IMG/VR virus record: IMGVR_UViG_3300035137_000084
Coordinates: 1-45,087 of that record
Direction: 5' to 3' (one strand)
DNA from: a virus
Length of the DNA: 45,087 nt
A program made the position numbers and the translations under genes. The notes below the pieces were generated by a model. It did not search any database. It was not told where the DNA came from and saw only the letters and a list, made by a program, of their open reading frames with translations. Positions within the stretch are counted from its first letter, which is position 1. Every line of letters begins with the position of its first letter. Below, in pieces: positions 1,562 through 41,516 of the stretch.

Positions 1562-4534
1562 TTGACCATGACACATATAACTTTTCTAAAACCAGAAGAA
1601 AATTACTGTTTCACATCAAAAACTTACCATTTAGTCGATAATAAACCCCGAGAAAAAGACAGCTACAGGATGGGGGAATATTTCTCCTTTAAGTCTTTTA
1701 ATATCTCAACCCTGAAGCAAGCGTATGATTTTATAAAAAAATATTCAGATGGTTGGATTAGAATCAACGGCAAACCCCGACCAGATCTGGATAATCTTAT
1801 AGAACCTGTCAGGCGTAATAATGTTAATTTCCCTGAAACGGAATCCAACCTGATAATGTTGGATATTGACGGATGGGCGTTACCAAAAGGTTACGAGTGG
1901 GATCTTCACAGTCCGGATGCAACCCATGATCTGATAGTCAAGATGTTGCAGATTAAAGGTTTTGACTACCTTACAACCTCCGACTTCATCTTCCTTTTGA
2001 CTTCCGGGCAATGGGAAGCTGATAGGCTTAACTGCCATCTCTATTTTTATCTTGATAAACCAATTCACATATCTGTATTAAGAGATTGGTGTACTGCCCT
2101 TGCAAAGGTCCGTCAGCAGAAAGTATTTGACCCAATGACTCAGAGGTCGGCTCAACCGGACTACATTGGAAAACGAAAATGTATAGGTTTCCAAGATCCA
2201 AGACCGGAAAAAGCAAGGATTTGTTACTGTCACAACGGAAACCCTGTCCTTTCATATGACGTGTTTCTCGAAAAATTAAATCAAGATCTAAAAAGTGCCG
2301 GATATAGTGCGGGATCAAATAACCTGCAAGCCCCTATTCGACACAACTGGCTGGAAACGCTTAAACTGTGTGGACAACCAAGCCGGGGAATTAATGAGCC
2401 ATCCCATAGGGCAGCTGCCCAACTCGTCCAGGAGGTCGGCAGGGGGGCTATATTAAGCAATATAACCCGGTATGCCGAACAGATGCACAAATCAGCATGG
2501 GAGTCAATACACACAAATGATCCGTACACCAAAGGAGAAAGAGATTACAGTAAAGATTCAATTACTTATAATAAGTTACGTTTCCAGCAATATTTAACAT
2601 CTGCCTGTAATAAAAATTTTGGCAGTCAAGTCGATAAACTTAAAGAAATAGTTGAAGGGGCTATAAATCAGGCGAGCAATGGGGATATCGCCATGTTATT
2701 TGAGCGTCCCGTTTTCGATGCTTATATGCGATTGAAGTCGAGTCATACCGGAGCTTTTGCCCATGTAAGAGCCTTGTTCAAAAAGAAATTAAGAGGGGTA
2801 GTGCCCATTACTGATTTTGAGGGCGCCGCCAGAACCCAGAACACCGGAACAGAGGAAAATAATGAGGCCCATTTTAATGGAGACATGGAAATCGAGAACC
2901 AGTATCTTAACACGGTTCTGGACGAATTTGATTGGCTGGAAGACGATAATGGTCAACACTGGTGTGGTTGGCATTCTGGTAATGGAGTGGGTAATTATAG
3001 AATTGCTTCCCTCAACAGTAATCTACGCAATATCCTCTATCAAGTCGGCCTGGAAAAATCAGGGGGGTCAGTCTCAGGTCGTTTCGGAGACAAAGCATTG
3101 CGGTTGCTCCATGGACATAAGGAAAGATACCAGGATACCCCGGAATCCAGATTTAAAAAAGTGATGGTAGGATTGAGGGTAGCTCCTGTAGGGGGTTCTT
3201 ATTCCAGTGAGTTAACCACTTGGGTACATGCAGGTCTTCAACCGGATGGTAAATCCCTATGTATAAAAATAGAACCTGGCAATATAGAGTATTTCACCCT
3301 GAAAGATTGCCCGGTAAGATGGAGAACCCCCGAAGACTTTGCCCCTATAATATTTGCAAATACGGAACAGGTAGCAAAGAAATTCAATTCCATTGAAGAT
3401 CTGAAAACCTGGACAATAGATCGGCTGTTCCAGTTCTTCACTGTTAATCGTAGTGAACAGCCTATGCTTCTTGGTATCATATTGGCTATTCTTTCCGGGA
3501 GAGGTACATCCCCTTTGATTGAGTTTGTAGGCCCAAGAGCAAGCGGTAAATCGACTGCAAGTCGTATGATGGTGGATCTGCTGGACCCAAAGAAAGGTGG
3601 GCTTAATTCAGATGGGAGTATATCTGATCTTGGATCAATAAAAAAAGAAGATCTCATTAACGTGGTCCAGGACCGGTACCTGTCGGCTTTTGATAACATG
3701 AGTGGTCTTAATCCCCGACTGCAGGATCAACTATGCCAGATAGCCACGGGGATCAGTAAAGATCAGAGAATAATGTATGTCGGCACTTACACAAAAGTCT
3801 TTGCCAAAAGACCAATCATATTATCAGCTCTTGCTCCTATTGTTACCCGATCAGATCTTGCTTCCCGGACAGAAACTTTTCATTTCAATAAGCAGTTCAT
3901 CCTTCCACCAAATACAGTAACTCACGAATGGGAACGGGATAAACCTTTTATTTTCACCGGATTAACTCACCTCTTAAAAGATGTGCTTCTGAAAATAGAC
4001 CCTTCAAGGCGAATGTCAGGCATAGAAGCAAGGCGAATGTGGTATGAAGTAGCGGACGACTTCTTTTATAAAGAAAAAGTTGAACGAGAAGGGATAAGAT
4101 TGGATCGAAAAATACAGGGATCACTTAACACTTTGGTTAATTCGGATTTTTGTCTCGGAATTGTAGCTTGGCTGCAGCAAAAAGAAAAAGATGGAAACAC
4201 CGAAGTCCAAGGTGTTGTCAGCTCCCTTCTGGATAATTTTAAAGAGTTCATACTATCCCGGCAGGGTACAACTATCATAATTCCAACCCCAGGAGAAACT
4301 ATAGAATGGAGGGTAGCAGATTGGGGCTTACGGATACCGAATACCCCTAGAGGTTTTACTTTCCAGTTAAATAAATTTTATCACACTATTTTGGACATAT
4401 GCGGTTGGGATATTAATGCCGGAATGGATCGAAAAGCGAGCGGGATCGTTAGAACTTTTTGTAAATTAAATAAGATAGAAGTAATTGACAGAGAAAATAA
4501 AATATTAGTTGATAGTCATGGTGACTTGATATAA
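1562..4534 (+). CDS. Primase-polymerase (AEP-like) fused to a P-loop (SF3/VirE-like) helicase domain; replicative primase-helicase
   Basis: N-terminal AEP-like motifs are IMLDIDGW (DxD), NCHLYFYL (sxH) and SAQPDYIG. The central region has Walker A GPRASGKST and a Walker-B-like RYLSAFDNMSG. The TTG at 1562 could be replaced by the ATG at 1568 as the true start. Confidence 0.7.
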   Translation: MTMTHITFLKPEENYCFTSKTYHLVDNKPREKDSYRMGEYFSFKSFNISTLKQAYDFIKKYSDGWIRINGKPRPDLDNLIEPVRRNNVNFPETESNLIMLDIDGWALPKGYEWDLHSPDATHDLIVKMLQIKGFDYLTTSDFIFLLTSGQWEADRLNCHLYFYLDKPIHISVLRDWCTALAKVRQQKVFDPMTQRSAQPDYIGKRKCIGFQDPRPEKARICYCHNGNPVLSYDVFLEKLNQDLKSAGYSAGSNNLQAPIRHNWLETLKLCGQPSRGINEPSHRAAAQLVQEVGRGAILSNITRYAEQMHKSAWESIHTNDPYTKGERDYSKDSITYNKLRFQQYLTSACNKNFGSQVDKLKEIVEGAINQASNGDIAMLFERPVFDAYMRLKSSHTGAFAHVRALFKKKLRGVVPITDFEGAARTQNTGTEENNEAHFNGDMEIENQYLNTVLDEFDWLEDDNGQHWCGWHSGNGVGNYRIASLNSNLRNILYQVGLEKSGGSVSGRFGDKALRLLHGHKERYQDTPESRFKKVMVGLRVAPVGGSYSSELTTWVHAGLQPDGKSLCIKIEPGNIEYFTLKDCPVRWRTPEDFAPIIFANTEQVAKKFNSIEDLKTWTIDRLFQFFTVNRSEQPMLLGIILAILSGRGTSPLIEFVGPRASGKSTASRMMVDLLDPKKGGLNSDGSISDLGSIKKEDLINVVQDRYLSAFDNMSGLNPRLQDQLCQIATGISKDQRIMYVGTYTKVFAKRPIILSALAPIVTRSDLASRTETFHFNKQFILPPNTVTHEWERDKPFIFTGLTHLLKDVLLKIDPSRRMSGIEARRMWYEVADDFFYKEKVEREGIRLDRKIQGSLNTLVNSDFCLGIVAWLQQKEKDGNTEVQGVVSSLLDNFKEFILSRQGTTIIIPTPGETIEWRVADWGLRIPNTPRGFTFQLNKFYHTILDICGWDINAGMDRKASGIVRTFCKLNKIEVIDRENKILVDSHGDLI

Positions 4535-4578
4535 TATAAAAATAAACTTCAAAAAAAATTAAAGGAGGGAACTATGAA

Positions 4579-4833
4579 ATGAAAATCAGTGAATGGCGTA
4601 AAAAGGAGGGGTTGACCCTTCAACAAATGGCTGACAAGCTAGGGTGTTCAAAACAGGCACTAGCAAAGTACGATAAAGGGACCGGTACTCCTGGTCTTGA
4701 ACTTGCTGTTGCTATTCATCAGTTGACAAAAGGAAAAGTCTCCTATGAAGAGATGATTCATTTAAGAAAGCTGAAAAAAAAGGAAACTGTGTCAACTGAC
4801 ACAAAGAAACATGGTTTCGATGATTTAATTTAA
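4579..4833 (+). CDS. XRE/Cro-type helix-turn-helix DNA-binding protein
   Basis: EGLTLQQMADKLGCSKQALAKYDKG is a typical HTH_3 motif. The SD aaaggaggg lies upstream. The protein ends in GFDDLI. Confidence 0.8.
   Translation: MKISEWRKKEGLTLQQMADKLGCSKQALAKYDKGTGTPGLELAVAIHQLTKGKVSYEEMIHLRKLKKKETVSTDTKKHGFDDLI
4789..4802. promoter_or_regulatory. Operator-like palindrome GTGTCA-AC-TGACAC (copy inside the 3' end of the HTH gene)
   Basis: Inverted 6-bp arms. The 18-nt string gtgtcaactgacacaaag is repeated exactly at 4836-4853. Confidence 0.5.
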
Positions 4834-4835
4834 AC

Positions 4836-4849
4836 GTGTCAACTGACAC
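4836..4849. promoter_or_regulatory. Operator-like palindrome GTGTCA-AC-TGACAC directly upstream of the RBS of the next gene
   Basis: Same 14-mer as 4789-4802, followed by aaaggagaaaa and the ATG at 4866. Confidence 0.5.
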
Positions 4850-4865
4850 AAAGGAGAAAAAAGAA

Positions 4866-5219
4866 ATGATAAGACTTACAATTGAAGCAGCTACAATGGT
4901 TGACTTAATGTTCCAATGTGAACAGCTAGCGCAAGGTATTTCCCCAACTGCCCCCGTTCAACCTAAGAAAGCAGCTCCGGCTCAACCTTCCCCCGTTCAA
5001 CCTGAGAAAGCAGCTCCGGCTCAACCTGCTCCGGCTCAACCTGCTCCGGTTCCTACCGTAGAAGAGGTGGCCCAGGCCGCAAAACTTTTCTTGCAGAAAA
5101 ATCCTGAAATCAATCGCCCCAAGGTAGCCGCTTTCATCAAAGAAAGAGGTGCTGAAAGAGTCACTGCTCTGGACGATGCCGGACGTGTCGATTTTCTGGA
5201 ATTGACAAAGGAGGGGTAA
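4866..5219 (+). CDS. Hypothetical protein with Pro/Ala/Gln-rich repeat linker (PVQPxKAAPAQP x2, APAQP x2)
   Basis: The ATG at 4866 follows aaaggagaaaaaagaa; the ORF track starts at the GTG at 4836. The stop overlaps the next start (TAATG). Confidence 0.65.
   Translation: MIRLTIEAATMVDLMFQCEQLAQGISPTAPVQPKKAAPAQPSPVQPEKAAPAQPAPAQPAPVPTVEEVAQAAKLFLQKNPEINRPKVAAFIKERGAERVTALDDAGRVDFLELTKEG
4951..5055. repeat. Coding tandem repeat (39-nt unit x2, then 15-nt gctccggctcaacct units)
   Basis: cccccgttcaacct(a/g)agaaagcagctccggctcaacct occurs at 4951-4988 and 4990-5027. Confidence 0.8.
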
Positions 5220-6361
5220 TGGTCGAACACAGCAAATACTTCAGCCCGAGCGGTATGAGCCGGGTACTTAAATGTCCGGGTTCGGCAAAATTATGTGCCG
5301 AGCTGCCGGATACTCAGTCCGATGCGGCAAGGGACGGTACAATACAGCATGAATTTTGTGAAAAGAACATTCACGCCTTCATGTTTAACTCAGATCTCGT
5401 TGACTATTCCTCCCTGGATAAAAAGTTTCATGGAAATGTGAAATCGGCGATGCAGATGGTAAAAGATCTGTGTGACACCAATGGCGCCCATGTGCAAGCT
5501 TTGGAATATAACAACCATATTGACGGTATGGATGATATTTTCGGCACCATGGACGTTGTTCTTTGGTCAAAGGATAATAAGCACATGCTGGTTGTAGATT
5601 ACAAGTTCGGATACAACCCGGTAGCAGCTGAGTGGAATACTCAACTGCTCATCTATGCCATTATCGCTAGAAGAATATTCAATGTCAAACCTGAAACAGT
5701 GACATTGGCTATTATCCAACCAAAGGTTCATGAGTCCAAACCTGATCTTTTTACTCTCCCGTTCAGAGAGATCCAGGATTGGAGCGTAAATAACCTGCTA
5801 CCGGTGTATAACGGAGTCAACGATGGTTCGCTGGACAACACCTTTAATCCCGGAGAGGAGCAGTGTCGGTGGTGTAAAGCACAAGCTACTTGTCCGGCAC
5901 TCAAAGACGAAGTTATGGACGCTTTGAACTATCAACCAACTGAAGACAAGCTAGGAGATCTGATCGGAAAAGTCTCGATGATCAGGGAATGGTGTGCCAG
6001 CATAGAGGCTCGTGTTCTTGACGCATTGCAGCAGGGTAAACCGGTTCCCGGCTATAAACTTGTTCGTGGCCGGGCAAACCGGAGATGGAAAGACCCGGAA
6101 GCTGCTGAGAAATGGCTCAGACTACGGAAGTTCAAAGAGAAAGACAGGTTTGTTAAAAAAGTTATTGGGATTCCGGCAGCTGAAGCCTTGATAAAGGGGA
6201 TGGCCCTGTCGAAAAAACTCCAAAACTCTTTTTCTGATTTAATCGAAAAACCGGAAGGAAAATTGACCTATGCCAAAGCGGACGACCCCCGGCAAGAGGT
6301 TATCGTGGAAACAGCAGAAGAAACCCTGAAAGATGTTACCGATTTTTCAGATCTAATCTAA
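5219..6361 (+). CDS. PD-(D/E)XK (Cas4/RecB-like, DUF2800-type) nuclease with C-terminal Cys cluster
   Basis: The N-terminus is FSPSGMSRVLKCPGSAKL. The core is MDVVLW...LVVDYKFG...QLLIYA. The Cys cluster is CRWCKAQATCP. The gene lies next to a DUF2815-like SSB as in known phage replication modules. The protein ends in FSDLI. Confidence 0.75.
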   Translation: MVEHSKYFSPSGMSRVLKCPGSAKLCAELPDTQSDAARDGTIQHEFCEKNIHAFMFNSDLVDYSSLDKKFHGNVKSAMQMVKDLCDTNGAHVQALEYNNHIDGMDDIFGTMDVVLWSKDNKHMLVVDYKFGYNPVAAEWNTQLLIYAIIARRIFNVKPETVTLAIIQPKVHESKPDLFTLPFREIQDWSVNNLLPVYNGVNDGSLDNTFNPGEEQCRWCKAQATCPALKDEVMDALNYQPTEDKLGDLIGKVSMIREWCASIEARVLDALQQGKPVPGYKLVRGRANRRWKDPEAAEKWLRLRKFKEKDRFVKKVIGIPAAEALIKGMALSKKLQNSFSDLIEKPEGKLTYAKADDPRQEVIVETAEETLKDVTDFSDLI

Positions 6362-6385
6362 ACAACGGATACAAAGGAGAAAACG

Positions 6386-6967
6386 ATGAATCCAACAACG
6401 ATCAACACACCGGAAGCCCGAATGAGTTACATGAAACTGTATCATCCTGTAAAGAACCTGAATGACAAAGAGATATATCAGGTAACTCTTCTTATCCCAA
6501 AAGAAACAGATATCTCGACCATTCAGGCCGCAATCAATCAGGTTATCGAGAATGAAAGTAACAAAAAGTTTCGAGGGGTACCGGGAGCCGCTATCCAGAG
6601 CTGCCTGAAAGACGGTGATATTTATTACCAGCAAAAACCCGAAAAGCGGGAGGCCTACATTGGCCACTGGTATATCAACTGCTCCAAAGATCCACAGTAT
6701 GGTGCGCCTACGGTCCTGGATGAAAACGGTATGCCTACAGATGATCCGGCAGTCTTTGACTCAGGTGACTACGGGATTGCTCGTATCCAGTTCTGGGGCT
6801 ACAATACCAAAGGGAATCAGGGTGTATCCTGTACCATCTTCGGGGTAAAGAAGACCCGCACAGGCGAGAAGCTTGGAGGTGGTGAGTCCAGGGATGAAAC
6901 CATGGCAGCTCTTGGAGGGTTGGCTTCCACTGCTACGGAGAGCATCGACGAAGACAGCCTGATATAA
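6386..6967 (+). CDS. ssDNA-binding protein, DUF2815 / Enc34-type (T7 gp2.5-like)
   Basis: Supported by the N-terminus TPEARMSYMKLYHP, the gene size, and its position after the DUF2800 nuclease and before polA. The acidic C-terminal tail is ESIDEDSLI. Confidence 0.65.
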   Translation: MNPTTINTPEARMSYMKLYHPVKNLNDKEIYQVTLLIPKETDISTIQAAINQVIENESNKKFRGVPGAAIQSCLKDGDIYYQQKPEKREAYIGHWYINCSKDPQYGAPTVLDENGMPTDDPAVFDSGDYGIARIQFWGYNTKGNQGVSCTIFGVKKTRTGEKLGGGESRDETMAALGGLASTATESIDEDSLI

Positions 6968-6988
6968 CGAGAGAATGAGTTGGCTTAA

Positions 6989-7017
6989 AAAGCCGGAGCA
7001 TTTTGTTCCGGCTTTTT
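6989..7017 (+). terminator. Rho-independent terminator (A-tract upstream, so possibly bidirectional)
   Basis: Stem aaagccgga / tccggcttt (6989-6997 / 7007-7015) is followed by a T-run at 7013-7017. Confidence 0.7.
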
Positions 7018-7057
7018 GACACAGTTCATAAACCCGCATGAAAGGAGAAAACAAACC

Positions 7058-7297
7058 ATGTCAAAAGTTGACGATACACCCAATAGTATTGTTGACCAGA
7101 TGGTCCGGCAGTACGAACACATTATTCCTAAAACTGAGATCTTTCACATTCCAATAGAAGAATTGTCTAATCGAGAATTACAGGCAACGATTTGTTGGAT
7201 GAATGAAACACTGCATCGGATCGTTCAATCAAATAAGGATCTCCGGGCCGAATTGCGAAAGCTCAAAGACCCTCCAAGAATAATAACTTTGAATTGA
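7058..7297 (+). CDS. Hypothetical protein, paralog of 10618..10818
   Basis: The ATG at 7058 follows gaaaggagaaaacaaacc. It shares IP(I/L)xELxxxxLxAxIC..N with the ORF immediately downstream of polA. Confidence 0.7.
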   Translation: MSKVDDTPNSIVDQMVRQYEHIIPKTEIFHIPIEELSNRELQATICWMNETLHRIVQSNKDLRAELRKLKDPPRIITLN

Positions 7298-7304
7298 GGT
7301 TACT

Positions 7305-7562
7305 ATGACTATTGAAAATACTCTACAGGAAAGAAATGATCGGTATGGTGATTTTCCGGGTCATGCTACCATCACTCAAAACATTAAAAGTGCCATGATG
7401 GCGAGCAGAGTATGGTCTAAATTATCTTTTGATAAAAAAGAAGCCCTTGAAATGATCGCTCACAAGATTGGACGTATTCTTAACGGCGATCCGGAATATA
7501 AGGACTCATGGCATGATATCTGCGGATATGCCAAGTTAATAGAAGATACCTTGGAGGATTGA
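7305..7562 (+). CDS. Conserved phage protein (tentatively DUF6378 / MazG-like all-alpha fold)
   Basis: The pattern ERNDRYGDF...EALEMIAHKIGRIL.GDP...DSWHDICGYAKL resembles a recurrent phage family. The functional assignment rests on memory only. Confidence 0.45.
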   Translation: MTIENTLQERNDRYGDFPGHATITQNIKSAMMASRVWSKLSFDKKEALEMIAHKIGRILNGDPEYKDSWHDICGYAKLIEDTLED

Positions 7563-7757
7563 ATGAAAAAACAAGACTTGGAAATATTATCCGCTGAGAT
7601 GTCTGGAATATTGGAGTTGAGTTGGTGGAATAAAGCTCCTATCCCCAAAGAATATGACATGAATAGTCAACACCTGCTGGAACGGCAGATTGAATTAAAG
7701 GCCTTGTGCCGGAGTGTACGAGACAAAGCCAATCGGTTATCAATGGAGATAAAATGA
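7563..7757 (+). CDS. Hypothetical protein (64 aa)
   Basis: ORF abutting the previous stop. Its stop overlaps the polymerase start in an ATGA. Confidence 0.6.
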   Translation: MKKQDLEILSAEMSGILELSWWNKAPIPKEYDMNSQHLLERQIELKALCRSVRDKANRLSMEIK

Positions 7758-10621
7758 TATATCTCGACTTTGAAACCCGATCAAAAATAGATTTAGTACA
7801 AGCCGGGCTGTACCGCTATGCTGAAGATATATCTACATCGGTTCTCTGTCTGGCATGGGCCATGGATGATGAAAATCCGGAATTATGGATTCCCGGAGAT
7901 CCTGCACCTCACAGATTATTTAACAGCCTCCATGAACACTTCCTTTCCGCTTATAATGCAGAGTTTGAAATAACCATCTGGCGGGAGATATGTGTAAAGC
8001 GAATGGGTTGGCCCGAAATACCGGATAATAAGTGGTGTTGTACCATGATTGACGCACTCGCTCTTGGACTTCCCCGTTCTATGGAGCAGTGTGCTTTGGC
8101 TCTTGGTACCATTGACAAAAAGGACACGAAAGGCAAGAACCTTATCAGAAAGCTCAGTAAACCTATTGCTGCAGGAAAAAAGAAAGGTGAGTTCCGGGAA
8201 AAAGCTGAATTTCATCAAGATTATCTGGATCTTTATTCCTATTGTAAGCAGGATGTCAGGACAGAACGGGCCATTCGCAACAGTCTCCCCCTGCAAGCCA
8301 CTCTTAATTTTGAAAGACAGGATTGGTTGAACACTCTCAAGATGAATCGAAGAGGGATACCAATCGACAAGTTAACAGCGTCAAGTATCCTTGCCCTGTC
8401 TGAGCAGAAGATTGAAAAACTCGATGCCGAGATAATGGAATTAACAGATGAAAAAATAAGCACAGCTCGACAACGGGAAAAAATAAGGTGTCACCTGGAA
8501 GATGAGTTTAAGCTATTCGTACCGGACATGCAGAATACCACTGTTGAAAAGTTACTTGAGGGGGATTTGCCTGAAAAAGCAGAAAGGATACTGAATATTC
8601 GCAGATCGATTAATCACCCATCCGTTGCCAAGTTCAAAAAGATTTTTGTCCAACTCTGTAAAGACAGTACTATAAAAGGATGCTATGTTCACCACGGAGC
8701 AGGGACCGGCAGGTATACCGCTCAAGGTATGCAACCACAAAACTTTCCACGGTTAAGTGTTCTCTATGAGAAGGTAGCTATTGAGATGATTCAGCAGGAT
8801 TCTCTGAGTGATATAGAGCTTGTCATGGGTGACAGCCTTCATCTTTTTTCCGCTTTACTGAGGGCAAATATCAAAGCCCCTGACGGTGAAACATTCTTTA
8901 ATGCGGATCTGTCACAGATCGAAGCTCGTATGGCGGCATGGATCGCTAAAGAGTATCATATACTCAAAGCCTATGCTGACGGTCTGGATGCGTATCGGGT
9001 AACTTCTGCGGATATGTACGGGGTTCCCTATGACGTTGTAACAACGGAACAACGGCAAGGGGGAAAAACTACAGTGTTGGCATGCCTAGCTTCTGGGCAA
9101 AAAGTTCTTACAGATAAAGGGTTAATTCCTATCGAGAAAGTTTGTACTTGCATGAGGGTTTGGGATGGAGTATCCTTTGTCAATCATAGTGGAACTATTT
9201 ATCAAGGAGTAAAAAAGGTAATAAATTATGGGAAATTATTGGCAACACCGGACCACATTGTTTACACCGAAGAAGGGGAGAAAATATCCTTACAAGAAGC
9301 AAACCGGAAAAGCGCAACCATCAAAACGACCGGAATTGGTAGGAGAGCAATTCGGATGGGTGAAAATTATAGATTCACAGACTCGTATGAAAAAGAAAGA
9401 CCGACAAATAAAATGTCAATGTACCAACTGTGGATTGATAAAGTGGATCAGCTTATACAATCTTCTCAACGGCAAAACTGCTGGCTGCCAGAAGTGCAGC
9501 CAACCGAAGTTGGTTCCGAAATGGCTTTTGAAAAGGTGTGCGGACGCAAAATCTCGATGTCAAAACCAACAACACCCTCATTGGAAAAATTATGGTCAAC
9601 GTGGCATAAAGTTTTGTTTCAATTCTCCTGTGGATATGGCTCTTTGGATAGAATCAAATCTAGGATTACACAAAGATTTAGAGATAGATCGTATAGACAA
9701 CAACGGAAACTATCAAGTAGGAAATTTGAGATACTCCAACAGGCGATTAAACTGCTCAAACAGAAGAGGGAGTCGAGCTCTACGGTTCCACGAATTTCGT
9801 CAGAAGTATCCAGATGTAAGGTATGCGGACAACACCTTACGCAATTTGATATGGCGAGGGTTGACCGACGAAGAAATAGTTTATCGTTTCTACAACAAAC
9901 CGAGTTGCAAACCAAAAGGCAAGTATGGGACATTCTCAACGCCGGACCCCGAAACCGTTTCACAGTTGAAGGAAAGCTTGTAAGTAATTGCGGTTTCGGT
10001 GGAGGAGAAAAAGCCCTTGACGCAATGGCTCAGAACTATGGACTTTCTTTTACCAAAGAAAAACGAATTGAACTTGTCAATGCTTTTAGACAGGCAAGAC
10101 CTGGACTTGTAAAATCCTGGGAATCTTTTGGGGACGCAGCAAGAAAAGCCATGGAGAATCCGGGGTATGAAGTACCGGTGTCTACTAATCAAAAGTTTAA
10201 ATTTTCTCAACAAGGTCACTGGCTGTTTCTCCACCTACCAAACAATAGAAGAATATGTTTTCCTTTTGCTCAGTGGATCCCATGGAAGACTCCATGGGGG
10301 CAAATTAAAATGTCTGTTACCCATAGGTGGATGAGTTCATATACCCGCAAATGGGAAAGACGTAGTATCACAGGAGCTTCCCTTTTCCAATCCGCTGTCC
10401 AGGGTCTATCTCGTGACGTTCTAATGGAAGCTCACAGGCGATTGGAACAAAACGGATATAAAATAGTCATGACCGTTCACGATGAATTAATGGCTCAGAT
10501 AATAGACGATGCAAGTTCAAACTTGGATCATTTTAACAGGTTGTTCAAACAGAATCCTTCATGGTGTCCTGATCTCCCCATTGACAGTGATCCGTGGAGA
10601 GGGGAAAGGTACAAGAAATGA
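7754..10621 (+). CDS. Family-A DNA polymerase with 3'-5' exonuclease domain, interrupted by an intein (9083..9988)
   Basis: The start at 7754 (MIYLDFETRS) is coupled by ATGA to the upstream gene. The exonuclease motifs are DFET, YNAEFE and YCKQD. Motif A is NADLSQIEARM. Motif B, GKTTVLA|CGFGGG, is split by the intein. Motif C is VHDEL. Confidence 0.85.
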   Translation: MIYLDFETRSKIDLVQAGLYRYAEDISTSVLCLAWAMDDENPELWIPGDPAPHRLFNSLHEHFLSAYNAEFEITIWREICVKRMGWPEIPDNKWCCTMIDALALGLPRSMEQCALALGTIDKKDTKGKNLIRKLSKPIAAGKKKGEFREKAEFHQDYLDLYSYCKQDVRTERAIRNSLPLQATLNFERQDWLNTLKMNRRGIPIDKLTASSILALSEQKIEKLDAEIMELTDEKISTARQREKIRCHLEDEFKLFVPDMQNTTVEKLLEGDLPEKAERILNIRRSINHPSVAKFKKIFVQLCKDSTIKGCYVHHGAGTGRYTAQGMQPQNFPRLSVLYEKVAIEMIQQDSLSDIELVMGDSLHLFSALLRANIKAPDGETFFNADLSQIEARMAAWIAKEYHILKAYADGLDAYRVTSADMYGVPYDVVTTEQRQGGKTTVLACLASGQKVLTDKGLIPIEKVCTCMRVWDGVSFVNHSGTIYQGVKKVINYGKLLATPDHIVYTEEGEKISLQEANRKSATIKTTGIGRRAIRMGENYRFTDSYEKERPTNKMSMYQLWIDKVDQLIQSSQRQNCWLPEVQPTEVGSEMAFEKVCGRKISMSKPTTPSLEKLWSTWHKVLFQFSCGYGSLDRIKSRITQRFRDRSYRQQRKLSSRKFEILQQAIKLLKQKRESSSTVPRISSEVSRCKVCGQHLTQFDMARVDRRRNSLSFLQQTELQTKRQVWDILNAGPRNRFTVEGKLVSNCGFGGGEKALDAMAQNYGLSFTKEKRIELVNAFRQARPGLVKSWESFGDAARKAMENPGYEVPVSTNQKFKFSQQGHWLFLHLPNNRRICFPFAQWIPWKTPWGQIKMSVTHRWMSSYTRKWERRSITGASLFQSAVQGLSRDVLMEAHRRLEQNGYKIVMTVHDELMAQIIDDASSNLDHFNRLFKQNPSWCPDLPIDSDPWRGERYKK
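9083..9988 (+). mobile_element. Intein (302 codons) in the polymerase motif-B region
   Basis: Block A is CLASGQKVLTDKG, block B is LLATPDHIVYT and blocks F/G are VWDILNAGPRNRFTVEGKLVSN. The following +1 residue is Cys (CGFGGG). Confidence 0.8.
9228..9983 (+). CDS. HNH-family homing endonuclease encoded out of frame inside the intein
   Basis: Frame 3n is open for 251 codons. Motifs present are GEQFGWVKII, CQCTNCG...GCQKC and WKNYGQRGIKFC...IDRIDNNGNYQVGNLRYSNRRLN. The stop lies 5 nt before the intein C-terminal Asn codon. aagg sits 9 nt upstream of the ATG. Confidence 0.7.
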   Translation: MGNYWQHRTTLFTPKKGRKYPYKKQTGKAQPSKRPELVGEQFGWVKIIDSQTRMKKKDRQIKCQCTNCGLIKWISLYNLLNGKTAGCQKCSQPKLVPKWLLKRCADAKSRCQNQQHPHWKNYGQRGIKFCFNSPVDMALWIESNLGLHKDLEIDRIDNNGNYQVGNLRYSNRRLNCSNRRGSRALRFHEFRQKYPDVRYADNTLRNLIWRGLTDEEIVYRFYNKPSCKPKGKYGTFSTPDPETVSQLKESL

Positions 10622-10818
10622 GAAATGAACATTTGTTTAACCGGCTGATCAGCAGATATACACCAATATTTGATAAGACCATGATGTATGGCGTTCCTTT
10701 ATCGGAACTCAATGCGGATCAATTAAGAGCTGCTATCTGCGCTCTTAATGATCTGGAAAAAGCAACACGAATGCGAATACAGAAAGAGCGTAATTTCTTC
10801 AAGAGAAGGAGAAAATGA
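10618..10818 (+). CDS. Hypothetical protein, paralog of 7058..7297
   Basis: The ATG at 10618 overlaps the polymerase stop (ATGA). It contains the motif VPLSELNADQLRAAICALN. Confidence 0.65.
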   Translation: MRNEHLFNRLISRYTPIFDKTMMYGVPLSELNADQLRAAICALNDLEKATRMRIQKERNFFKRRRK

Positions 10819-10822
10819 AATA

Positions 10823-11683
10823 ATGAAAATTGCTTTGATAGACGAAGATAATACTAAATTTCCTAATTTGGCTCTTATGAAAATATCAGCATACCATAAG
10901 TCAATAGGAGATCATGTAGAGTTTTTTAATACAAACAAAGAATATGATAAAATTTACTCTTCTAAGATTTTTACCTGGACAACTCCTACTTCAACAAGTT
11001 TTCCCAGTATAAAAGGGGGAACCGGGTTCAGTTTACAAAGGAAACTACCAATTAGAATAGAATTAATGTGTCCTGATTATCAGTTATATGACACAAAACA
11101 CTCTTATGGTTTTTTAACAAGAGGATGTATACGGAAGTGCAAATGGTGTTTTGTCCCTAAAAAAGAAGGGATGATCAGAAAACATCAAGACATAGAAGAC
11201 TTTTTAAGGCATAAAAGTGCAATACTTATGGATAACAACGTACTCGCTTCTTCTTTTGGTATAGGGCAAATAAATAAAATAGCAGATCTCGGCATAAAAG
11301 TAGATTTTAATCAAGGTTTAGATTCTCGACTTATTGACAATAAAATAGCGAAGCTGTTATCAAAAGTAAAATGGTTATCTCCCGTCCGATTAGCATGTGA
11401 TTCATACTCACAAGTTGAATCTATAGAAAAAGCTGTTAGGCTTTTACGTTGGCACAACGTTACGCCTAGAAAATATTTTTGTTATGTACTACTAACCGAC
11501 GACATTGAAGATTGTATTGAAAGAATACGTTTTTTAAAAGGTTTAAACATAGATCCTTTTGTTCAACCTTATCGGGGCACGGAAAACGAAAATCCAACTA
11601 AGCTGCAAAAACAATTTGCTAGATGGGTAAATCACAAAGCGATATTTAATACCGTTCCCTGGAAGGATTATTGTAAGAAATGA
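10823..11683 (+). CDS. Radical SAM enzyme (CX3CX2C) with a short B12-binding-like N-terminal region
   Basis: The ATG at 10823 follows aaggagaaaatgaaata. GFLTRGCIRKCKWCFVPKKEG is the canonical radical SAM cluster motif. The N-terminus FPNLALMKISAYHKSIGDHVEF resembles class-B rSAM leaders. Confidence 0.75.
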   Translation: MKIALIDEDNTKFPNLALMKISAYHKSIGDHVEFFNTNKEYDKIYSSKIFTWTTPTSTSFPSIKGGTGFSLQRKLPIRIELMCPDYQLYDTKHSYGFLTRGCIRKCKWCFVPKKEGMIRKHQDIEDFLRHKSAILMDNNVLASSFGIGQINKIADLGIKVDFNQGLDSRLIDNKIAKLLSKVKWLSPVRLACDSYSQVESIEKAVRLLRWHNVTPRKYFCYVLLTDDIEDCIERIRFLKGLNIDPFVQPYRGTENENPTKLQKQFARWVNHKAIFNTVPWKDYCKK

Positions 11684-13086
11684 ATAAATTTGTACCAAAG
11701 GATTATCAAGTAGAAGACATAGATTTCCTGTCCACTGCTCGTATAGGTGGCCTCTTTGAAGAAATGGGGCTTGGTAAAACAGTAGTAGTCCTGAAGACCA
11801 TAGAAGCTGCAATGTTTGATTTTGTGGATACGGAAAAAACGTTGGTCGTATCGACTAAAAACGTAATACTCAATCAATGGCCTCAGGAGATAAAGAAGTG
11901 GGATTTTTCCAGTAACTTTTCCTTTACCATTCTTCATGGGGAATATAAACAGCAGAACCTCCTACTTAAAAAGCAGATTTATCTTATCAACTATGATGGG
12001 TTGTACTGGTTGAACCGACAGTACCGGAACAAAAGGTTGTGGCCCATCCTGCCAAAATTTGACATGGTAGTAATAGACGAATCTACTCATATAAAAAATG
12101 ATCAGTCACAACGAAGTCAAATAATTCAGCAGCTTTTCGGCCTTGCAAAGCGGAAAATAATACTCACAGGTACGCCTACTCCCAATGGACTTATTGATTT
12201 ATACGGACAGATCTGTTTTTTAAATGACCGTGTTCTGGGTACTAATCTCACCTCTTTTAGGAATAATTATTTTATCTCGGTAGATGGTGGACATGGTGGA
12301 TATAAGTATGTACCGAGACAAGGAAGTCGGGATCTTATTACTAAACGAATTGCCCATCTGGTCAAGATACGAAAAGCGGCTGATCATCTTGAAAAAGAAG
12401 AGGTCAGAATCAATAAGATAGAATGTAATTTTGATGACAAAATACAAGAGGAATATGATACTCTGGAAAGTGATTTCTTTTTGGAACTGGATGATCAGAA
12501 AGTAGAAGTTTTTAGTGCAGCTTCCCTGTCATCTAAACTTCGTCAGTACACTCAAGGCTTCCTGTACGGACAAGATAAGAAAGTGTCTCAGGTCAATGAT
12601 ACAAAGCATAAGGTTTTAAAAGAAATACTGGAATATTCTACAGGCCATCCGATACTATGTGGGATACAGTTCATTGCCGAAGTGGATCTAATCAGAAAGT
12701 TTCTGGGATATAATGTTCCGGCTATCAACTCCAAAACTTCTGACAGAGACACCGCAAAGTATATTGAACAATGGAATAATAGACAACTACCACTTCTTAT
12801 TGCACATCCTCAGTCAATAGCCCATGGTATAAATCTGCAATCCGGTGGTAATATAATATTGTGGCTTGGGCTTCCCTGGGCTATGGACCATTACCAGCAA
12901 TTCATCGGCAGATTGGACAGACAGGGCCAGAAGAACGGAGTCATAGTTCACCATTTGATCGTAAAGAAAACTATCGATGAGGCCATTATGGCAGCTTTAG
13001 AGAGTAAAGTAGACACTCAGAACAGAGTGATCGATTCAATACAGAAATATCGAGATGAAAAAGAAAATATTGGAAAAAGATGTTGA
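11680..13086 (+). CDS. SNF2-family (SF2) helicase/ATPase
   Basis: Motifs present are GLGKT, DMVVIDESTHIKN, LTGTPTPNGLIDLY and QFIGRLDRQGQ. The start overlaps the radical SAM stop (ATGA). Confidence 0.85.
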   Translation: MNKFVPKDYQVEDIDFLSTARIGGLFEEMGLGKTVVVLKTIEAAMFDFVDTEKTLVVSTKNVILNQWPQEIKKWDFSSNFSFTILHGEYKQQNLLLKKQIYLINYDGLYWLNRQYRNKRLWPILPKFDMVVIDESTHIKNDQSQRSQIIQQLFGLAKRKIILTGTPTPNGLIDLYGQICFLNDRVLGTNLTSFRNNYFISVDGGHGGYKYVPRQGSRDLITKRIAHLVKIRKAADHLEKEEVRINKIECNFDDKIQEEYDTLESDFFLELDDQKVEVFSAASLSSKLRQYTQGFLYGQDKKVSQVNDTKHKVLKEILEYSTGHPILCGIQFIAEVDLIRKFLGYNVPAINSKTSDRDTAKYIEQWNNRQLPLLIAHPQSIAHGINLQSGGNIILWLGLPWAMDHYQQFIGRLDRQGQKNGVIVHHLIVKKTIDEAIMAALESKVDTQNRVIDSIQKYRDEKENIGKRC

Positions 13087-13363
13087 AAGCAGACTTCGCA
13101 AAAAGGTTATGGCCCTTGGCTTTCTGTGTGAGAAATTCACTTCCCCGCAAAGAAGAAGCGTACCGGATAGACTTGTTACAACTAATGGAGGGCGAATGTA
13201 CTTCGTTGAACTTAAAGCTCCGGGTAAGAAACCAACTTCTGCTCAACAGAGGGACCATGAAAGGCGTAGGGCCATGGGCTTTGAGGTTTTGGTAATCGAC
13301 TCTTATGAAGGAGTTGATGCTTTTATAGAGATGCTTAAAAAGATTCCCGATCCCCTGATTTAA
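13055..13363 (+). CDS. VRR-NUC domain nuclease
   Basis: Contains VPDRLV...MYFVELKAPGKKPTSAQ (PD...ExK) at the typical size of about 100 aa. The protein ends in IPDPLI. Confidence 0.75.
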   Translation: MKKKILEKDVESRLRKKVMALGFLCEKFTSPQRRSVPDRLVTTNGGRMYFVELKAPGKKPTSAQQRDHERRRAMGFEVLVIDSYEGVDAFIEMLKKIPDPLI

Positions 13364-38829: not shown

Positions 38830-39393
38830 TTAAGATGTCAAGTAAAAATAATCACGATGAATTTGAGACACTACAACATCTTGTATAACCGGATCTGCAT
38901 AGTGACAAACAACTGCGTCTTTTAAAATACCTACTTCTTGGAAACCCACGACCTTTGACCAACGAATAGCAAGAGTATTACATACTGGCAGAAGCCCTAG
39001 AACATTATTAACAGCAAACTCACCGTCAAATTTCAACTGAAAAATATAATCAAGCCCCCTCCGGCCTATCTCAACTGATCTTTTTCTCCCGAAGACAGAT
39101 GGATGAAGTGAAAAATGGGCTTGAGCCGCTTTTCCGCAGTAGTTAGACAACATTACTTCCCCAATAACTGTGTCATTGTCGTTATCCCAACAGATGTAAT
39201 TCCATAATTTTTTATTATTAAGCATCGAAGAAACCACATCAAGATCCGGATTTTGAATTTCCGGAACACGATAACGCAACAGGTTATGTTGTTTTAAATC
39301 TTTCCAGTAACGAAAGACAAAATGGCGCATGGCAGCATTGTCTAAATCCACCGGTACAAATTGAAAATTATATAAAGGGGTCATAGTCGTCAT
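38830..39393 (-). CDS. GNAT-family N-acetyltransferase (tentative)
   Basis: IGEVML...AHFSLHP...RRGLDYIF...VCNTLAIRWSKVVGFQEVGILKDA fits the GNAT A/B motif layout. An alternative start lies at 39384. Confidence 0.5.
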   Translation of the reverse strand: MTTMTPLYNFQFVPVDLDNAAMRHFVFRYWKDLKQHNLLRYRVPEIQNPDLDVVSSMLNNKKLWNYICWDNDNDTVIGEVMLSNYCGKAAQAHFSLHPSVFGRKRSVEIGRRGLDYIFQLKFDGEFAVNNVLGLLPVCNTLAIRWSKVVGFQEVGILKDAVVCHYADPVIQDVVVSQIHRDYFYLTS

Positions 39394-40795
39394 TATAAAA
39401 ATTCATTGGATCATAATTCCGATCCCTTTTTTCCTTAAAGTGTCTCATTTGCCTGAGTGTCTCATCAGTAATTCCCCTCTCCCGCATCTGAGGTGTAGCC
39501 CGGTGTATCACATCAACCTCCTCCGCAAAAGTAACGGCAAGAGCATCCGCTTCATCAAAAGGGGTTCCGGGGGCTCTTGAACGGATGTGCTGCTTGGACT
39601 CCATCTGAATATAACCTTTATCATTTAACTCGCATGTGGGTGTCGAAAGACCGACTATCAGGTTCTCATCGTCCGGTATGGAAGGTGTCTGCCCTTTATA
39701 AGCTCCGGCCATGAACCAATCCTTGACCTTGCCATATATCTCAGCTCTTTTGTTAAGATACAACGAGTTTGACAACCTTGCGGCGAAATGAACAGGGTAC
39801 AGGATGTCACCATACCCGAGCTTTTCAATCTGGTTAATGACTCCCTCACCCCGGCCACTGTCAACCATTATGGCATCAGCACCCCATGAGCTGGCCTCTT
39901 TTACAGCAATAGACCCGAGATCCTGAGGTTTCACACCTTTAAACTTCAAGATGGGGTATAAATGACGACCTTGCCGTTTTGCGATAGTAGCACTGTCACC
40001 TTTGGCTGAATATGCCGGATCAACCCCTACGATTTTAGGGGCAAAACCAAAGTCTTCCTCTTTTAGTCGATTATTCACTGCCGGTTGGATGATATCAAGA
40101 GGAATCAATACGTTCTCAGATGAAGCTGTCCAGGAGCAATAATACTCCTGTTGAATCAGTGACTCCGGCATCCCGGACTCTCTATCCTGCTGAATAGCTT
40201 CCAGTGTGGGCACGCCGGTATCATCCCGGGTCAAGTACTGGCTGAACCAGTTTTCATTCTTCTCAGCGGCTCTGAAGAGCTGGTACATATGATTCAGACC
40301 ACGGGGCGTGCCGTTGAATAAAGCCCATCCGTTGTTCTCTGCCAAGATGGGCCGAAGATAATGCCAGGCTTCGGGTCGGTGAAGAGAAAACTCGGTAAAA
40401 ATTATCCCAACCGGGTTTGTTCCCATGATTGAGTCAATGTTATCAGACCCGCATACTTTAAGAACAGAGTCAGTCTTCAATTCCAACTCCATACCTGTCT
40501 CTCTTTTGTTCTTAATCAACTCTCTTGGAATGTAATCAAGAAACTTCCGTCCCGAGCCATCAGCTCCCAACCATATAATCTGCCTTGCCTGATTAGAAAA
40601 AGGGGCCATGTACAGATAAAGGCCTTTTCTTTGAACGGCCTTTGCAGTGAGTATGTTGATAGCAACAAGATCTTTACCGTTTCTCCGGGGCCAAACAGTG
40701 ATACCCCTCCGGATATTATTAACAACAAAAGCTTGCCATACCGGATCTTGGTAATGACGGAGATTAAAATCGTAAGGGAGCTTTAAAGACGGCAT
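39368..40795 (-). CDS. terL: Terminase large subunit
   Basis: The Walker-A-like motif is WPRRNGKD. The C-terminal half resembles a nuclease domain. The 475-aa gene lies next to TerS. Confidence 0.8.
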   Translation of the reverse strand: MPSLKLPYDFNLRHYQDPVWQAFVVNNIRRGITVWPRRNGKDLVAINILTAKAVQRKGLYLYMAPFSNQARQIIWLGADGSGRKFLDYIPRELIKNKRETGMELELKTDSVLKVCGSDNIDSIMGTNPVGIIFTEFSLHRPEAWHYLRPILAENNGWALFNGTPRGLNHMYQLFRAAEKNENWFSQYLTRDDTGVPTLEAIQQDRESGMPESLIQQEYYCSWTASSENVLIPLDIIQPAVNNRLKEEDFGFAPKIVGVDPAYSAKGDSATIAKRQGRHLYPILKFKGVKPQDLGSIAVKEASSWGADAIMVDSGRGEGVINQIEKLGYGDILYPVHFAARLSNSLYLNKRAEIYGKVKDWFMAGAYKGQTPSIPDDENLIVGLSTPTCELNDKGYIQMESKQHIRSRAPGTPFDEADALAVTFAEEVDVIHRATPQMRERGITDETLRQMRHFKEKRDRNYDPMNFYNDDYDPFI

Positions 40796-40797
40796 AT

Positions 40798-40977
40798 CTA
40801 AGTAATCGGTACAAAAACAGAAGTTGTGTCGTGATAAGAGTGTTTTATTTTTCGGGTATAAATGTAACCGGTGTCCACTCTCAGCACCTCATACTCTGTA
40901 AACTCATCAATGTCGAAAATAAGAGTCTCGTGCATCTGAAGATCCCTTACCCTTTCCAGCTCTTTGGATGGTTTCAT
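40798..40977 (-). CDS. Small protein (59 aa) between TerS and TerL
   Basis: The ATG at 40977 overlaps the TerS stop as ATGA. The frame is open to TAG 40800-40798, 2 nt before the TerL start. It falls below the ORF-track cutoff. Confidence 0.55.
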   Translation of the reverse strand: MKPSKELERVRDLQMHETLIFDIDEFTEYEVLRVDTGYIYTRKIKHSYHDTTSVFVPIT

Positions 40978-41516
40978 ATCAAATCATCAAACCCCTCTAT
41001 TTCTTTAGTCTTGAAATCAAGCTCTTTTATATCCTTCTTACCGGGTGTCACGTCTATGATTGTCGGATTCTTGCGGTTGGATATGCCTTCTATCTCGATC
41101 TTGAAAACCATATCCGCATTCACATCAACCTGAGCCTTTTCTCTCCGGTTGAAAAAAGTTGAGAGAAGAAACTTCACAAACTGCTGCGGCATTGCTTCTC
41201 TCAAGCCGCCTTGAATATATGCGTCTTCAATAAAAGATCCTGCCAGTTCGAGGCAAGCCATGGACTCCTTCATGTAAGTCCCCGGCACATCTTCCTCTGC
41301 CCGGATGATACGCTGCAGCGCATCGAATCCTCTTAAACCGATAGCCATAGCAAGACCTGGAGGGGTCGGAAGTTGCGGATCATCCTCATCTTTTAAAAGC
41401 GAGAAATAGTCTACGATCTTCAACCTCAGCCTGTCAGGGTCGGCCATGACTTGTTCGGGGGTATAAAACCTCGGGAGGTTTATACTTCGTTGTAGTGTTT
41501 CAGGAATTTGTGCCAT
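40974..41516 (-). CDS. terS: Terminase small subunit
   Basis: PTPPGLAMAIGLRGFDALQRI is the HTH-like Terminase_2 pattern. The gene lies upstream of TerL, and the protein ends in GFDDLI. Confidence 0.65.
   Translation of the reverse strand: MAQIPETLQRSINLPRFYTPEQVMADPDRLRLKIVDYFSLLKDEDDPQLPTPPGLAMAIGLRGFDALQRIIRAEEDVPGTYMKESMACLELAGSFIEDAYIQGGLREAMPQQFVKFLLSTFFNRREKAQVDVNADMVFKIEIEGISNRKNPTIIDVTPGKKDIKELDFKTKEIEGFDDLI

Follow-up and report, generated by a model that had tools for sequence, protein, structure and literature searches.

The window analysed here, a 45,087-nucleotide stretch of virus DNA (IMG/VR virus record IMGVR_UViG_3300035137_000084, positions 1 to 45,087), carries the known duf2800-gp2.5-polA gene module (PMC8093625) and BPP-1-like head genes. 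Its 61 plausible predicted genes were translated and the C-termini were read directly from the sequence. Six of the proteins were found to end in a short tail of acidic context with Leu-Ile at its tip: a putative primase-helicase, a helix-turn-helix (HTH) protein, a DUF2800 exonuclease, a protein that binds single-stranded DNA (SSB), a VRR-NUC-like endonuclease and a putative small terminase subunit, TerS (Table 1). An earlier note on this DNA had listed these six tails, and all of them were recovered, each at its stop, on translating the window.

Table 1. Tail-bearing genes of the window, followed by other genes discussed in the text
Feature	Coordinates	Strand	C-terminus	Remarks
Putative AEP-primase / SF3-helicase, 990 aa	1562-4534	+	…DSHGDLI	tail codons 4520-4531; stop codon 4532-4534
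Xre-type HTH_3 protein, 84 aa	4579-4833	+	…HGFDDLI	PF01381, E = 1.1e-8
DUF2800 / PD-(D/E)XK (Cas4-like) exonuclease	5219-6361	+	…TDFSDLI	PF10926, E = 2.4e-64; PHROG 69
T7 gp2.5 / Enc34-type SSB and annealing protein	6386-6967	+	…TESIDEDSLI	acidic tail; PF10991, E = 7.9e-33; PHROG 112, E = 2.5e-34
VRR-NUC-like endonuclease, 102 aa	13055-13363	+	…KIPDPLI	PHROG 93, E = 1.2e-29
Putative TerS	40974-41516	-	…EGFDDLI	tail codons 40977-40988; immediately upstream of TerL
TerL	39368-40795	-	…DDYDPFI	PHROG 2; probably outside the tail system
Doubtful open reading frame (ORF), 51 aa	41986-42141	-	…RKLI	seventh LI ending
Family A DNA polymerase (PolA)	7706-10621	+	…GERYKK	tail-less; PF00476, PHROG 17; candidate receptor
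Radical-SAM-like protein	10748-11683	+	…KDYCKK	tail-less; PHROG 9298; between PolA and SNF2
p127, 127 aa	4836-5219	+		tail-less; between the HTH gene and DUF2800
Pentapeptide-repeat protein, 244 aa	13-747	+		among early genes; PF00805, E = 2e-69

Enrichment of the tail and its likeness at the protein level

Leu-Ile endings occurred on 7 of the 61 predicted proteins, against 0.34 expected from the internal dipeptide frequency (binomial P = 5e-8), and this excess persisted after stop positions were re-evaluated. When any dipeptide was allowed, a count of at least six at random internal positions was reached in 1e-4 of 20000 trials, and stop-to-stop segments that are not genes ended in Leu-Ile in 6 of 685 cases (0.9%). 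Six of the seven endings lie in an acidic context, the seventh belonging to the doubtful 51-aa ORF. The claim of the earlier note that no other protein of the window ends in this way is not entirely accurate, since this ORF ends in …RKLI and TerL in …DDYDPFI.

The likeness lies at the level of the protein, on which selection acts, because the codons differ and the flanking DNA shares nothing. The Leu and Ile codons vary among the tail copies; the last six residues of the HTH protein and the putative TerS, which are identical, are encoded with 4 synonymous differences. A comparison of the DNA upstream and downstream of the tail stops found no common motif. A recent duplication or a DNA-level motif was ruled out on these grounds, in agreement with the earlier note, which had placed the similarity in the proteins and not in a recent copying of DNA. 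In the DUF2800 nuclease the Pfam domain stops at residue 359 of 380, so that the tail falls outside it. AlphaFold confidence (pLDDT) was 30-41 across residues 164-193 of the SSB, and the model of the putative TerS was helical over residues 20-135 with pLDDT <50 from residue 135 on; the low confidence of these two C-terminal regions is consistent with disorder and a flexible linker.

Two of the tail-bearing proteins are named provisionally. The 990-aa protein had been called a primase-helicase, a label that finds no backing in Pfam, where no family matched, and a PDB sequence search with it returned nothing significant; an alignment of six homologues nevertheless showed the motifs LMLDIDGW, NCHLYF and GPxxSGKST, which fit a putative AEP-like D-x-D / C-H-L-Y set together with a Walker A / SF3-like region. 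The label TerS is likewise putative. It rests on the position of the gene upstream of the adjoining TerL, on an architecture of a helical domain plus a long helix, and on a GP3_package match (E = 0.0015) that is only sub-threshold, lying below the family cut-off; the best Foldseek match of the model had E = 0.27.

Conservation of the tail and genome-specific endings

A megablast comparison of the window with phage records gave no match, and it has no close relative among 50,697 phage records. A single-protein locus search in IMG/VR found none, a scan of GTDB genomes gave one distant match in a metagenome-assembled genome, and a JGI scan gave few loci. Relatives did turn up in metagenomes.

At the protein level the acidic-hydrophobic tail was kept in homologues. 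In 22/22 close homologues of DUF2800 (31-56% identity) the chain closed with an acidic residue, [DE], and then one or two hydrophobic ones, and the tail was present in 11/11 TerS homologues, on linkers of very variable length, and in 7/7 homologues of the SSB. The SSB endings were DIFG, SIM, DILG, SIL, GLI, DIL and VPF, the first five belonging to homologues at 57-66% identity. Homologues of the 990-aa protein ended in NLV, DIL, EDL, EDL and SLL. The nine closest among 1.84 billion representative proteins were acidic-hydrophobic without exception (9/9), and such a tail was borne by 25/38 full-length homologues versus 24/104 distant helicase-only controls; in its loose form, acid plus hydrophobic, the definition also matches ~10% of unrelated proteins. 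HTH homologues ended in DII, SIL, DEL, DSL, DLL and NLI, and those of the VRR-NUC protein in EIV, DFLS and RLL, with the tail missing in two relatives (L090 and L092). PolA never bore the tail, and its C-terminus, [YEK]RY[KRH]K, was conserved in every relative.

The endings proved to be specific to the genome and to be shared there by proteins of different families (Table 2). Inside a genome, proteins of different families agreed in their last 1-3 residues at an identity of 0.46-0.61, versus 0.23-0.30 when genomes were permuted within each protein family, and the observed value was reached by none of 5000 permutations. The result was the same (0/5000) when the test was restricted to one genome per ending type. 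Concerted change in non-homologous proteins calls for a constraint acting on all of them, of which a single binding site that they share would be the simplest.

Table 2. Endings of tail-bearing proteins in relatives of the window
Genome	Endings	Remarks
L001	NLV / DII / DLI / GLI / EIV	on different proteins
L002	DDFLS, DDIFG, VDFLS	nuclease, SSB and VRR-NUC, in this order
L088	EDFLS	TerS; same sample as L002
L003	DIL / SIL / EIL / SIM	
L090	[DE][DE]L	on six proteins
L092	[DESN]-L	single JGI contig; on nine proteins, TerS included
L093	SLL / NLI / ELI / GLL	

The nine proteins of L092 are TerS, an HNH-AP2 endonuclease, the primase-helicase, the HTH protein, DUF2800, DUF7303, the SSB, and radical-SAM-like and Mom-like proteins. 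Counted over the relatives, the bearers also include DNA modification enzymes of the Mom-like and Dam-like kinds, a homing endonuclease (HNH-AP2) and a radical-SAM-like protein. The last of these (L092 12117-12989) is the counterpart of the tail-less radical-SAM-like protein of the window and bears the L092 tail (…EFDDL). An HNH-AP2 homing-type endonuclease is inserted beside TerS in two genomes (L086 1857-2471, …EFGDL; L092 402-1025, …EFASL). Mobile genes appear to adopt the local tail type, because these endonucleases end in it.

The tail in BPP-1 and other phages

The same kind of pattern was found in the Bordetella phage BPP-1 (NC_005357; our loci L108/L109), the model phage for diversity-generating retroelements. 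There, Leu-Val endings occur on 5 of 49 proteins against 0.22 expected (P = 2.7e-6). The bearers of LV are the Bbp38 exonuclease (…VEDLV), the Bbp40 SSB (…AADLV), the Bbp26 TerS (…AAGLV), Bbp15 (…GGDLV) and Bbp45 (…AGGLV), and the Dam-like Bpm methylase ends in …VADLI. No homology was detectable between the TerS of BPP-1 and that of the window, and the tail was therefore gained independently by the two. In the E. coli phage vB_EcoM-689R2, the SSB (…EALI) and DUF2800 (…ADLI) share an LI ending. TL-2011b, which combines a BPP-1-type head with a lambdoid RecT/ExoVIII module and has no gp2.5-type SSB, showed no shared tail among its proteins.

The end of TerL requires separate treatment. A Y-D-P-[YF] C-terminus is found in the window, in BPP-1 (DYDPYARM, L109 24136-25737), in TL-2011b (DYDPYA, L110 12215-13690) and also in L088. 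We rejected TerL as a client, the YDP[YF] ending being a feature of the TerL family that is present in the tail-less TL-2011b. Because the ending occurs both in BPP-1 and in TL-2011b, the latter without a tail system, it is probably unrelated to the tails; it may be a portal-docking end.

A proposed shared docking motif and its candidate receptors

We favour a T7/T4-style arrangement, at a probability of roughly 0.6, in which many clients would share a C-terminal docking peptide that binds one co-evolving receptor. The observation of shared tails is well supported, and the mechanism is moderately supported. The tail would be a flexible, often acidic linker ending in [D/E/S]-hydrophobic(-hydrophobic)-COOH, that is, a short linear docking motif, and most of the proteins with which this lineage works on phage DNA have been given the same one. 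Every tail of a genome would plug into a single receptor pocket, and the clients would thereby be concentrated on, and swapped at, replicating phage DNA. The receptor would co-evolve with the tails, and it is most likely encoded by the phage, because the endings diverge between close relatives. The earlier note had offered a common docking peptide and a degron side by side; the co-varying endings and the gp2.5-family SSB favour one partner, which keeps the former, and the degron is disfavoured. The reading in the note is partly supported: homologues kept the tail and the enrichment held up, contrary to two of the outcomes that the note had named as refuting it.

Our first choice of receptor, made by analogy, is the core of the gp2.5-type SSB, with its beta-sheet groove that binds tails. 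Crystals of four T7-type SSBs (Enc34 ORF6, gp2.5 itself and two further DUF2815 proteins) show the tail resting in this groove of a neighbouring molecule (PMC5686142). Among the bearers, the exonuclease accompanies the SSB most consistently, which is what one would expect of an exonuclease/annealase pair. An SSB would also be abundant and multivalent, and T4 sets a precedent for contact between terminase and SSB: its TerL, gp17, contacts the SSB gp32 as well as gp55, which couples packaging (PMC9026906). Our second choice is the tail-less phage PolA, by the precedent of T7 gp5, whose front basic patch binds the acidic tails of both gp2.5 and gp4 (PMC12339929). PolA is the sole core replisome enzyme that never bears the tail. 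The host beta clamp is a weaker, less likely candidate.

The SSB core would allow a hub of inverted polarity, which we regard as possible but on the whole doubtful. The groove of the SSB OB-core, normally occupied by the tail of a neighbouring SSB, would here receive mimics of that tail from up to nine phage proteins acting on DNA, namely the helicase, the exonuclease, the resolvase, the regulator, DNA-modification enzymes, the homing endonuclease and TerS. If this were true, SSB-coated single-stranded DNA (ssDNA) would be a toolbelt coupling replication, recombination, DNA modification and packaging, and the tail endings would co-evolve fast with the groove, insulating the network of each phage.

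Several results weigh against a shared docking motif of this kind. Tail sharing is absent from Xfas53 despite its duf2800-gp2.5-polA module, and in 80 more distant IMG/VR loci (L006-L085) mostly the SSB alone carries a tail (DDDFLN, DDFLG). PolA aligns to solved Pol I structures over just ~70-130 residues, so that the basic patch of gp5 cannot be mapped on it, and the tip of the tail is aliphatic, whereas T7 depends on an aromatic residue, Phe, at this place. The genome-specific endings could come partly from shared ancestry of subclades. In addition, L002 and L088 were taken as one genome on their shared sequencing run alone; joining of the two contigs was attempted and not achieved.

Since Xfas53 and most of the IMG/VR loci are without it, the tail was rejected as a general trait of the duf2800-gp2.5-polA module. 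The distant DUF2800 nucleases of L006-L085 have an acidic D-F within their last 8 residues (TDFQPNK, EDFKDIK). This near-terminal D-F may be an older, weaker form of the motif, common to the exonuclease and the SSB.

Comparison with known tail systems

The closest parallels are to T7. The SSB of the window belongs to the gp2.5 / DUF2815 family (PF10991, PHROG 112), and it shares with the primase-helicase a flexible acidic tail, which in the SSB is of low confidence in AlphaFold, as T7 gp2.5 (…DEDGDF) and gp4 (…SNDTDF) both end in DF. The two systems differ in that six to nine clients are found here versus two, among them a nuclease, a resolvase, an HTH protein, TerS and DNA-modification enzymes. 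The tails of the window end in Ile, and those of its relatives in L, I, V or M, with some F-L-S or I-F-G, as opposed to the Phe of T7; the helicase is of AEP/SF3 type and not Toprim/SF4. In T7 the receptor is gp5; those named here are candidates.

In T4, gp43, gp55 and gp33 bind the gp45 hub by interchangeable acidic-hydrophobic C-termini on variable unstructured linkers, and the hub joins polymerase and transcription factors (PMC2988020). The window resembles T4 in having several proteins with similar acidic-hydrophobic C-termini on variable linkers; unlike T4, it has no clamp gene recognisable by Pfam or PHROGs, its polymerase is tail-less, and TerS itself bears the tail. The bacterial SSB C-terminus (…DDDIPF) likewise combines acidity and disorder with a tip that is hydrophobic. 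The clients of the bacterial SSB hub are also similar, being nucleases, helicase/primase and recombination enzymes. The polarity is inverted, however: in bacteria the tip belongs to the SSB alone and the clients have pockets for it, but in the window five other proteins bear the tip besides the SSB (D-E-D-S-L-I). The P-F tip is absent from this clade, although one distant SSB homologue, P0008, ends in …VVPF, and the SSB of the window is of another fold family, the gp2.5 type.

Alternative explanations

Clamp-binding motifs (CBMs) are short and linear, often C-terminal, and let many DNA enzymes compete for one pocket of the beta clamp (PMC11139829), and degenerate, Gln-less versions of them could tether the enzymes, the regulator and TerS to the clamp of the host as a toolbelt. 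The clients (nuclease, methylase, resolvase, regulator) resemble those of clamp/PCNA toolbelts, the T4 proteins named above bind one clamp by acidic-hydrophobic C-termini on flexible linkers (PMC2988020), and phages of different hosts have similar DL[IV] tails. In the LI/LV-type tails [SD]-L-[IV] matches positions 3-5 of QL[SD]LF, and …ADL[IV] of BPP-1 resembles the Pol III alpha motif QADMF (PMC11139829). We nonetheless consider a host clamp unlikely. Only [SD]-L-I of the six tails fits the CBM (Q-phi-x-[LM]-[FL] or Q-phi-x-[LM]-x-[FL]), and only at motif positions 3-5; Q at -5/-6 and an aliphatic residue at -4 are lacking, Gln and the aliphatic position 2 are missing from every tail, and other ending types such as [DE][DE]L and DFLS misfit. 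The endings are genome-specific and fast-evolving, diverging between relatives with SSBs 57-66% identical though the clamp pocket is conserved, and the phage polymerase, a classical clamp client, has no tail. No recognisable sliding-clamp gene was found among the proteins of the window scanned with Pfam or PHROGs. The PIP box of PCNA (Q-x-x-[LIM]-x-x-[FY]-[FY]) differs as well, since the tails of the window have neither its Q nor its aromatic pair, and the F at -5 in three of them gives h-x-x-h-h spacing only.

Tails that act in cis would dispense with a common partner: each would be an independently evolved acidic DNA mimic or autoinhibitor on the DNA-binding surface of its own protein, and the likeness would be convergence. 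Every client does bind DNA, removal of the Enc34 ORF6 tail alters discrimination between ssDNA and double-stranded DNA, and the gp2.5 tail competes with ssDNA (PMC5686142). What this reading fails to explain is why terminal residues are common within a genome and different between genomes, and why non-homologous TerS proteins carry the local ending type, and we hold it to be quite improbable. Short hydrophobic C-termini can also be degrons (ssrA …LAA, MuA), and the tails might then mark proteins for a ClpXP-, Lon- or Prc-type protease that times their levels in infection, with genome-specific endings following the proteases of the host. That is very improbable in our view. In a comparison with ssrA-like ClpX signals the tails, acidic and ending in L-I, were neither L-A-A-like nor basic R-R-K-K-A-I-like, and their strongly acidic context is unlike ClpX C-motifs; a degron would also give early replication proteins and the late TerS one fate, and the tail has long been conserved on the helicase family. 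The SSB, moreover, is needed stoichiometrically, and its homologues dock via the tail (PMC5686142, PMC12339929). Finally, short motifs can recur, and the ~10% of unrelated proteins caught by the loose definition could speak for chance, composition or a DNA-level motif at gene ends. The binomial P of 5e-8 and the value of 1e-4 for any dipeptide, the lack of enrichment in non-gene ORFs and of a DNA motif, and the recurrence of the pattern in relatives and BPP-1 leave such an explanation hardly conceivable.

Breadth of the tail system

The principle of a docking tail is already known: T7 has it on two proteins and T4 on three. What is new is its extension to six to nine clients, with a homing endonuclease, DNA-modification enzymes and TerS among them, the setting without a recognisable clamp, the genome-specific endings and the pattern in BPP-1; a literature search found no description of the client breadth, the clamp-less setting, the genome-specific endings or the BPP-1 pattern. 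Most of the machinery by which a small podovirus handles its DNA, packaging initiator and DNA-modification enzymes included, appears to be organised around a shared tail, and one common docking site would tie replication, recombination and packaging together. The within-genome co-variation amounts to a natural specificity code that could be used to find the receptor, and it would allow one to predict the accessory proteins that connect to the replisome. Should the SSB core be the receptor, SSB hubs would gain a new logic. The idea can be tested directly in the cultured BPP-1 and, in part, in the E. coli phage.

Neighbouring genes and other observations

Several other genes drew our attention. 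Pfam and PHROGs also detected a SNF2 helicase in the window. PolA is 971 aa long here versus ~656-664 aa in the close relatives L001, L002, L005, L090 and L092. Its ~300 extra residues, encoded at roughly 9080-9985, lie between two PolA-homologous parts and gave only weak zinc-ribbon matches; no intein or homing-endonuclease family was found in the insertion.

The protein p127 is conserved. Its N-terminal domain is small and is separated by a long linker, rich in Pro, Ala and Lys, from a helical domain of ~45 aa at the C-terminus. It may be a tethering adaptor. We rejected it as a clamp-like receptor, given its build of two small domains with a Pro/Ala-rich linker between them, the lack of a family match and its absence from BPP-1. 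The pentapeptide-repeat protein may mimic DNA or act in anti-defence, or it may point to the host. At L089 (45-1673), one full gene with an FGE-sulfatase domain precedes three near-copies of its C-terminal part, each of 90 aa and arranged in tandem, which resemble the repeats (variable-protein or template) found in diversity-generating systems.

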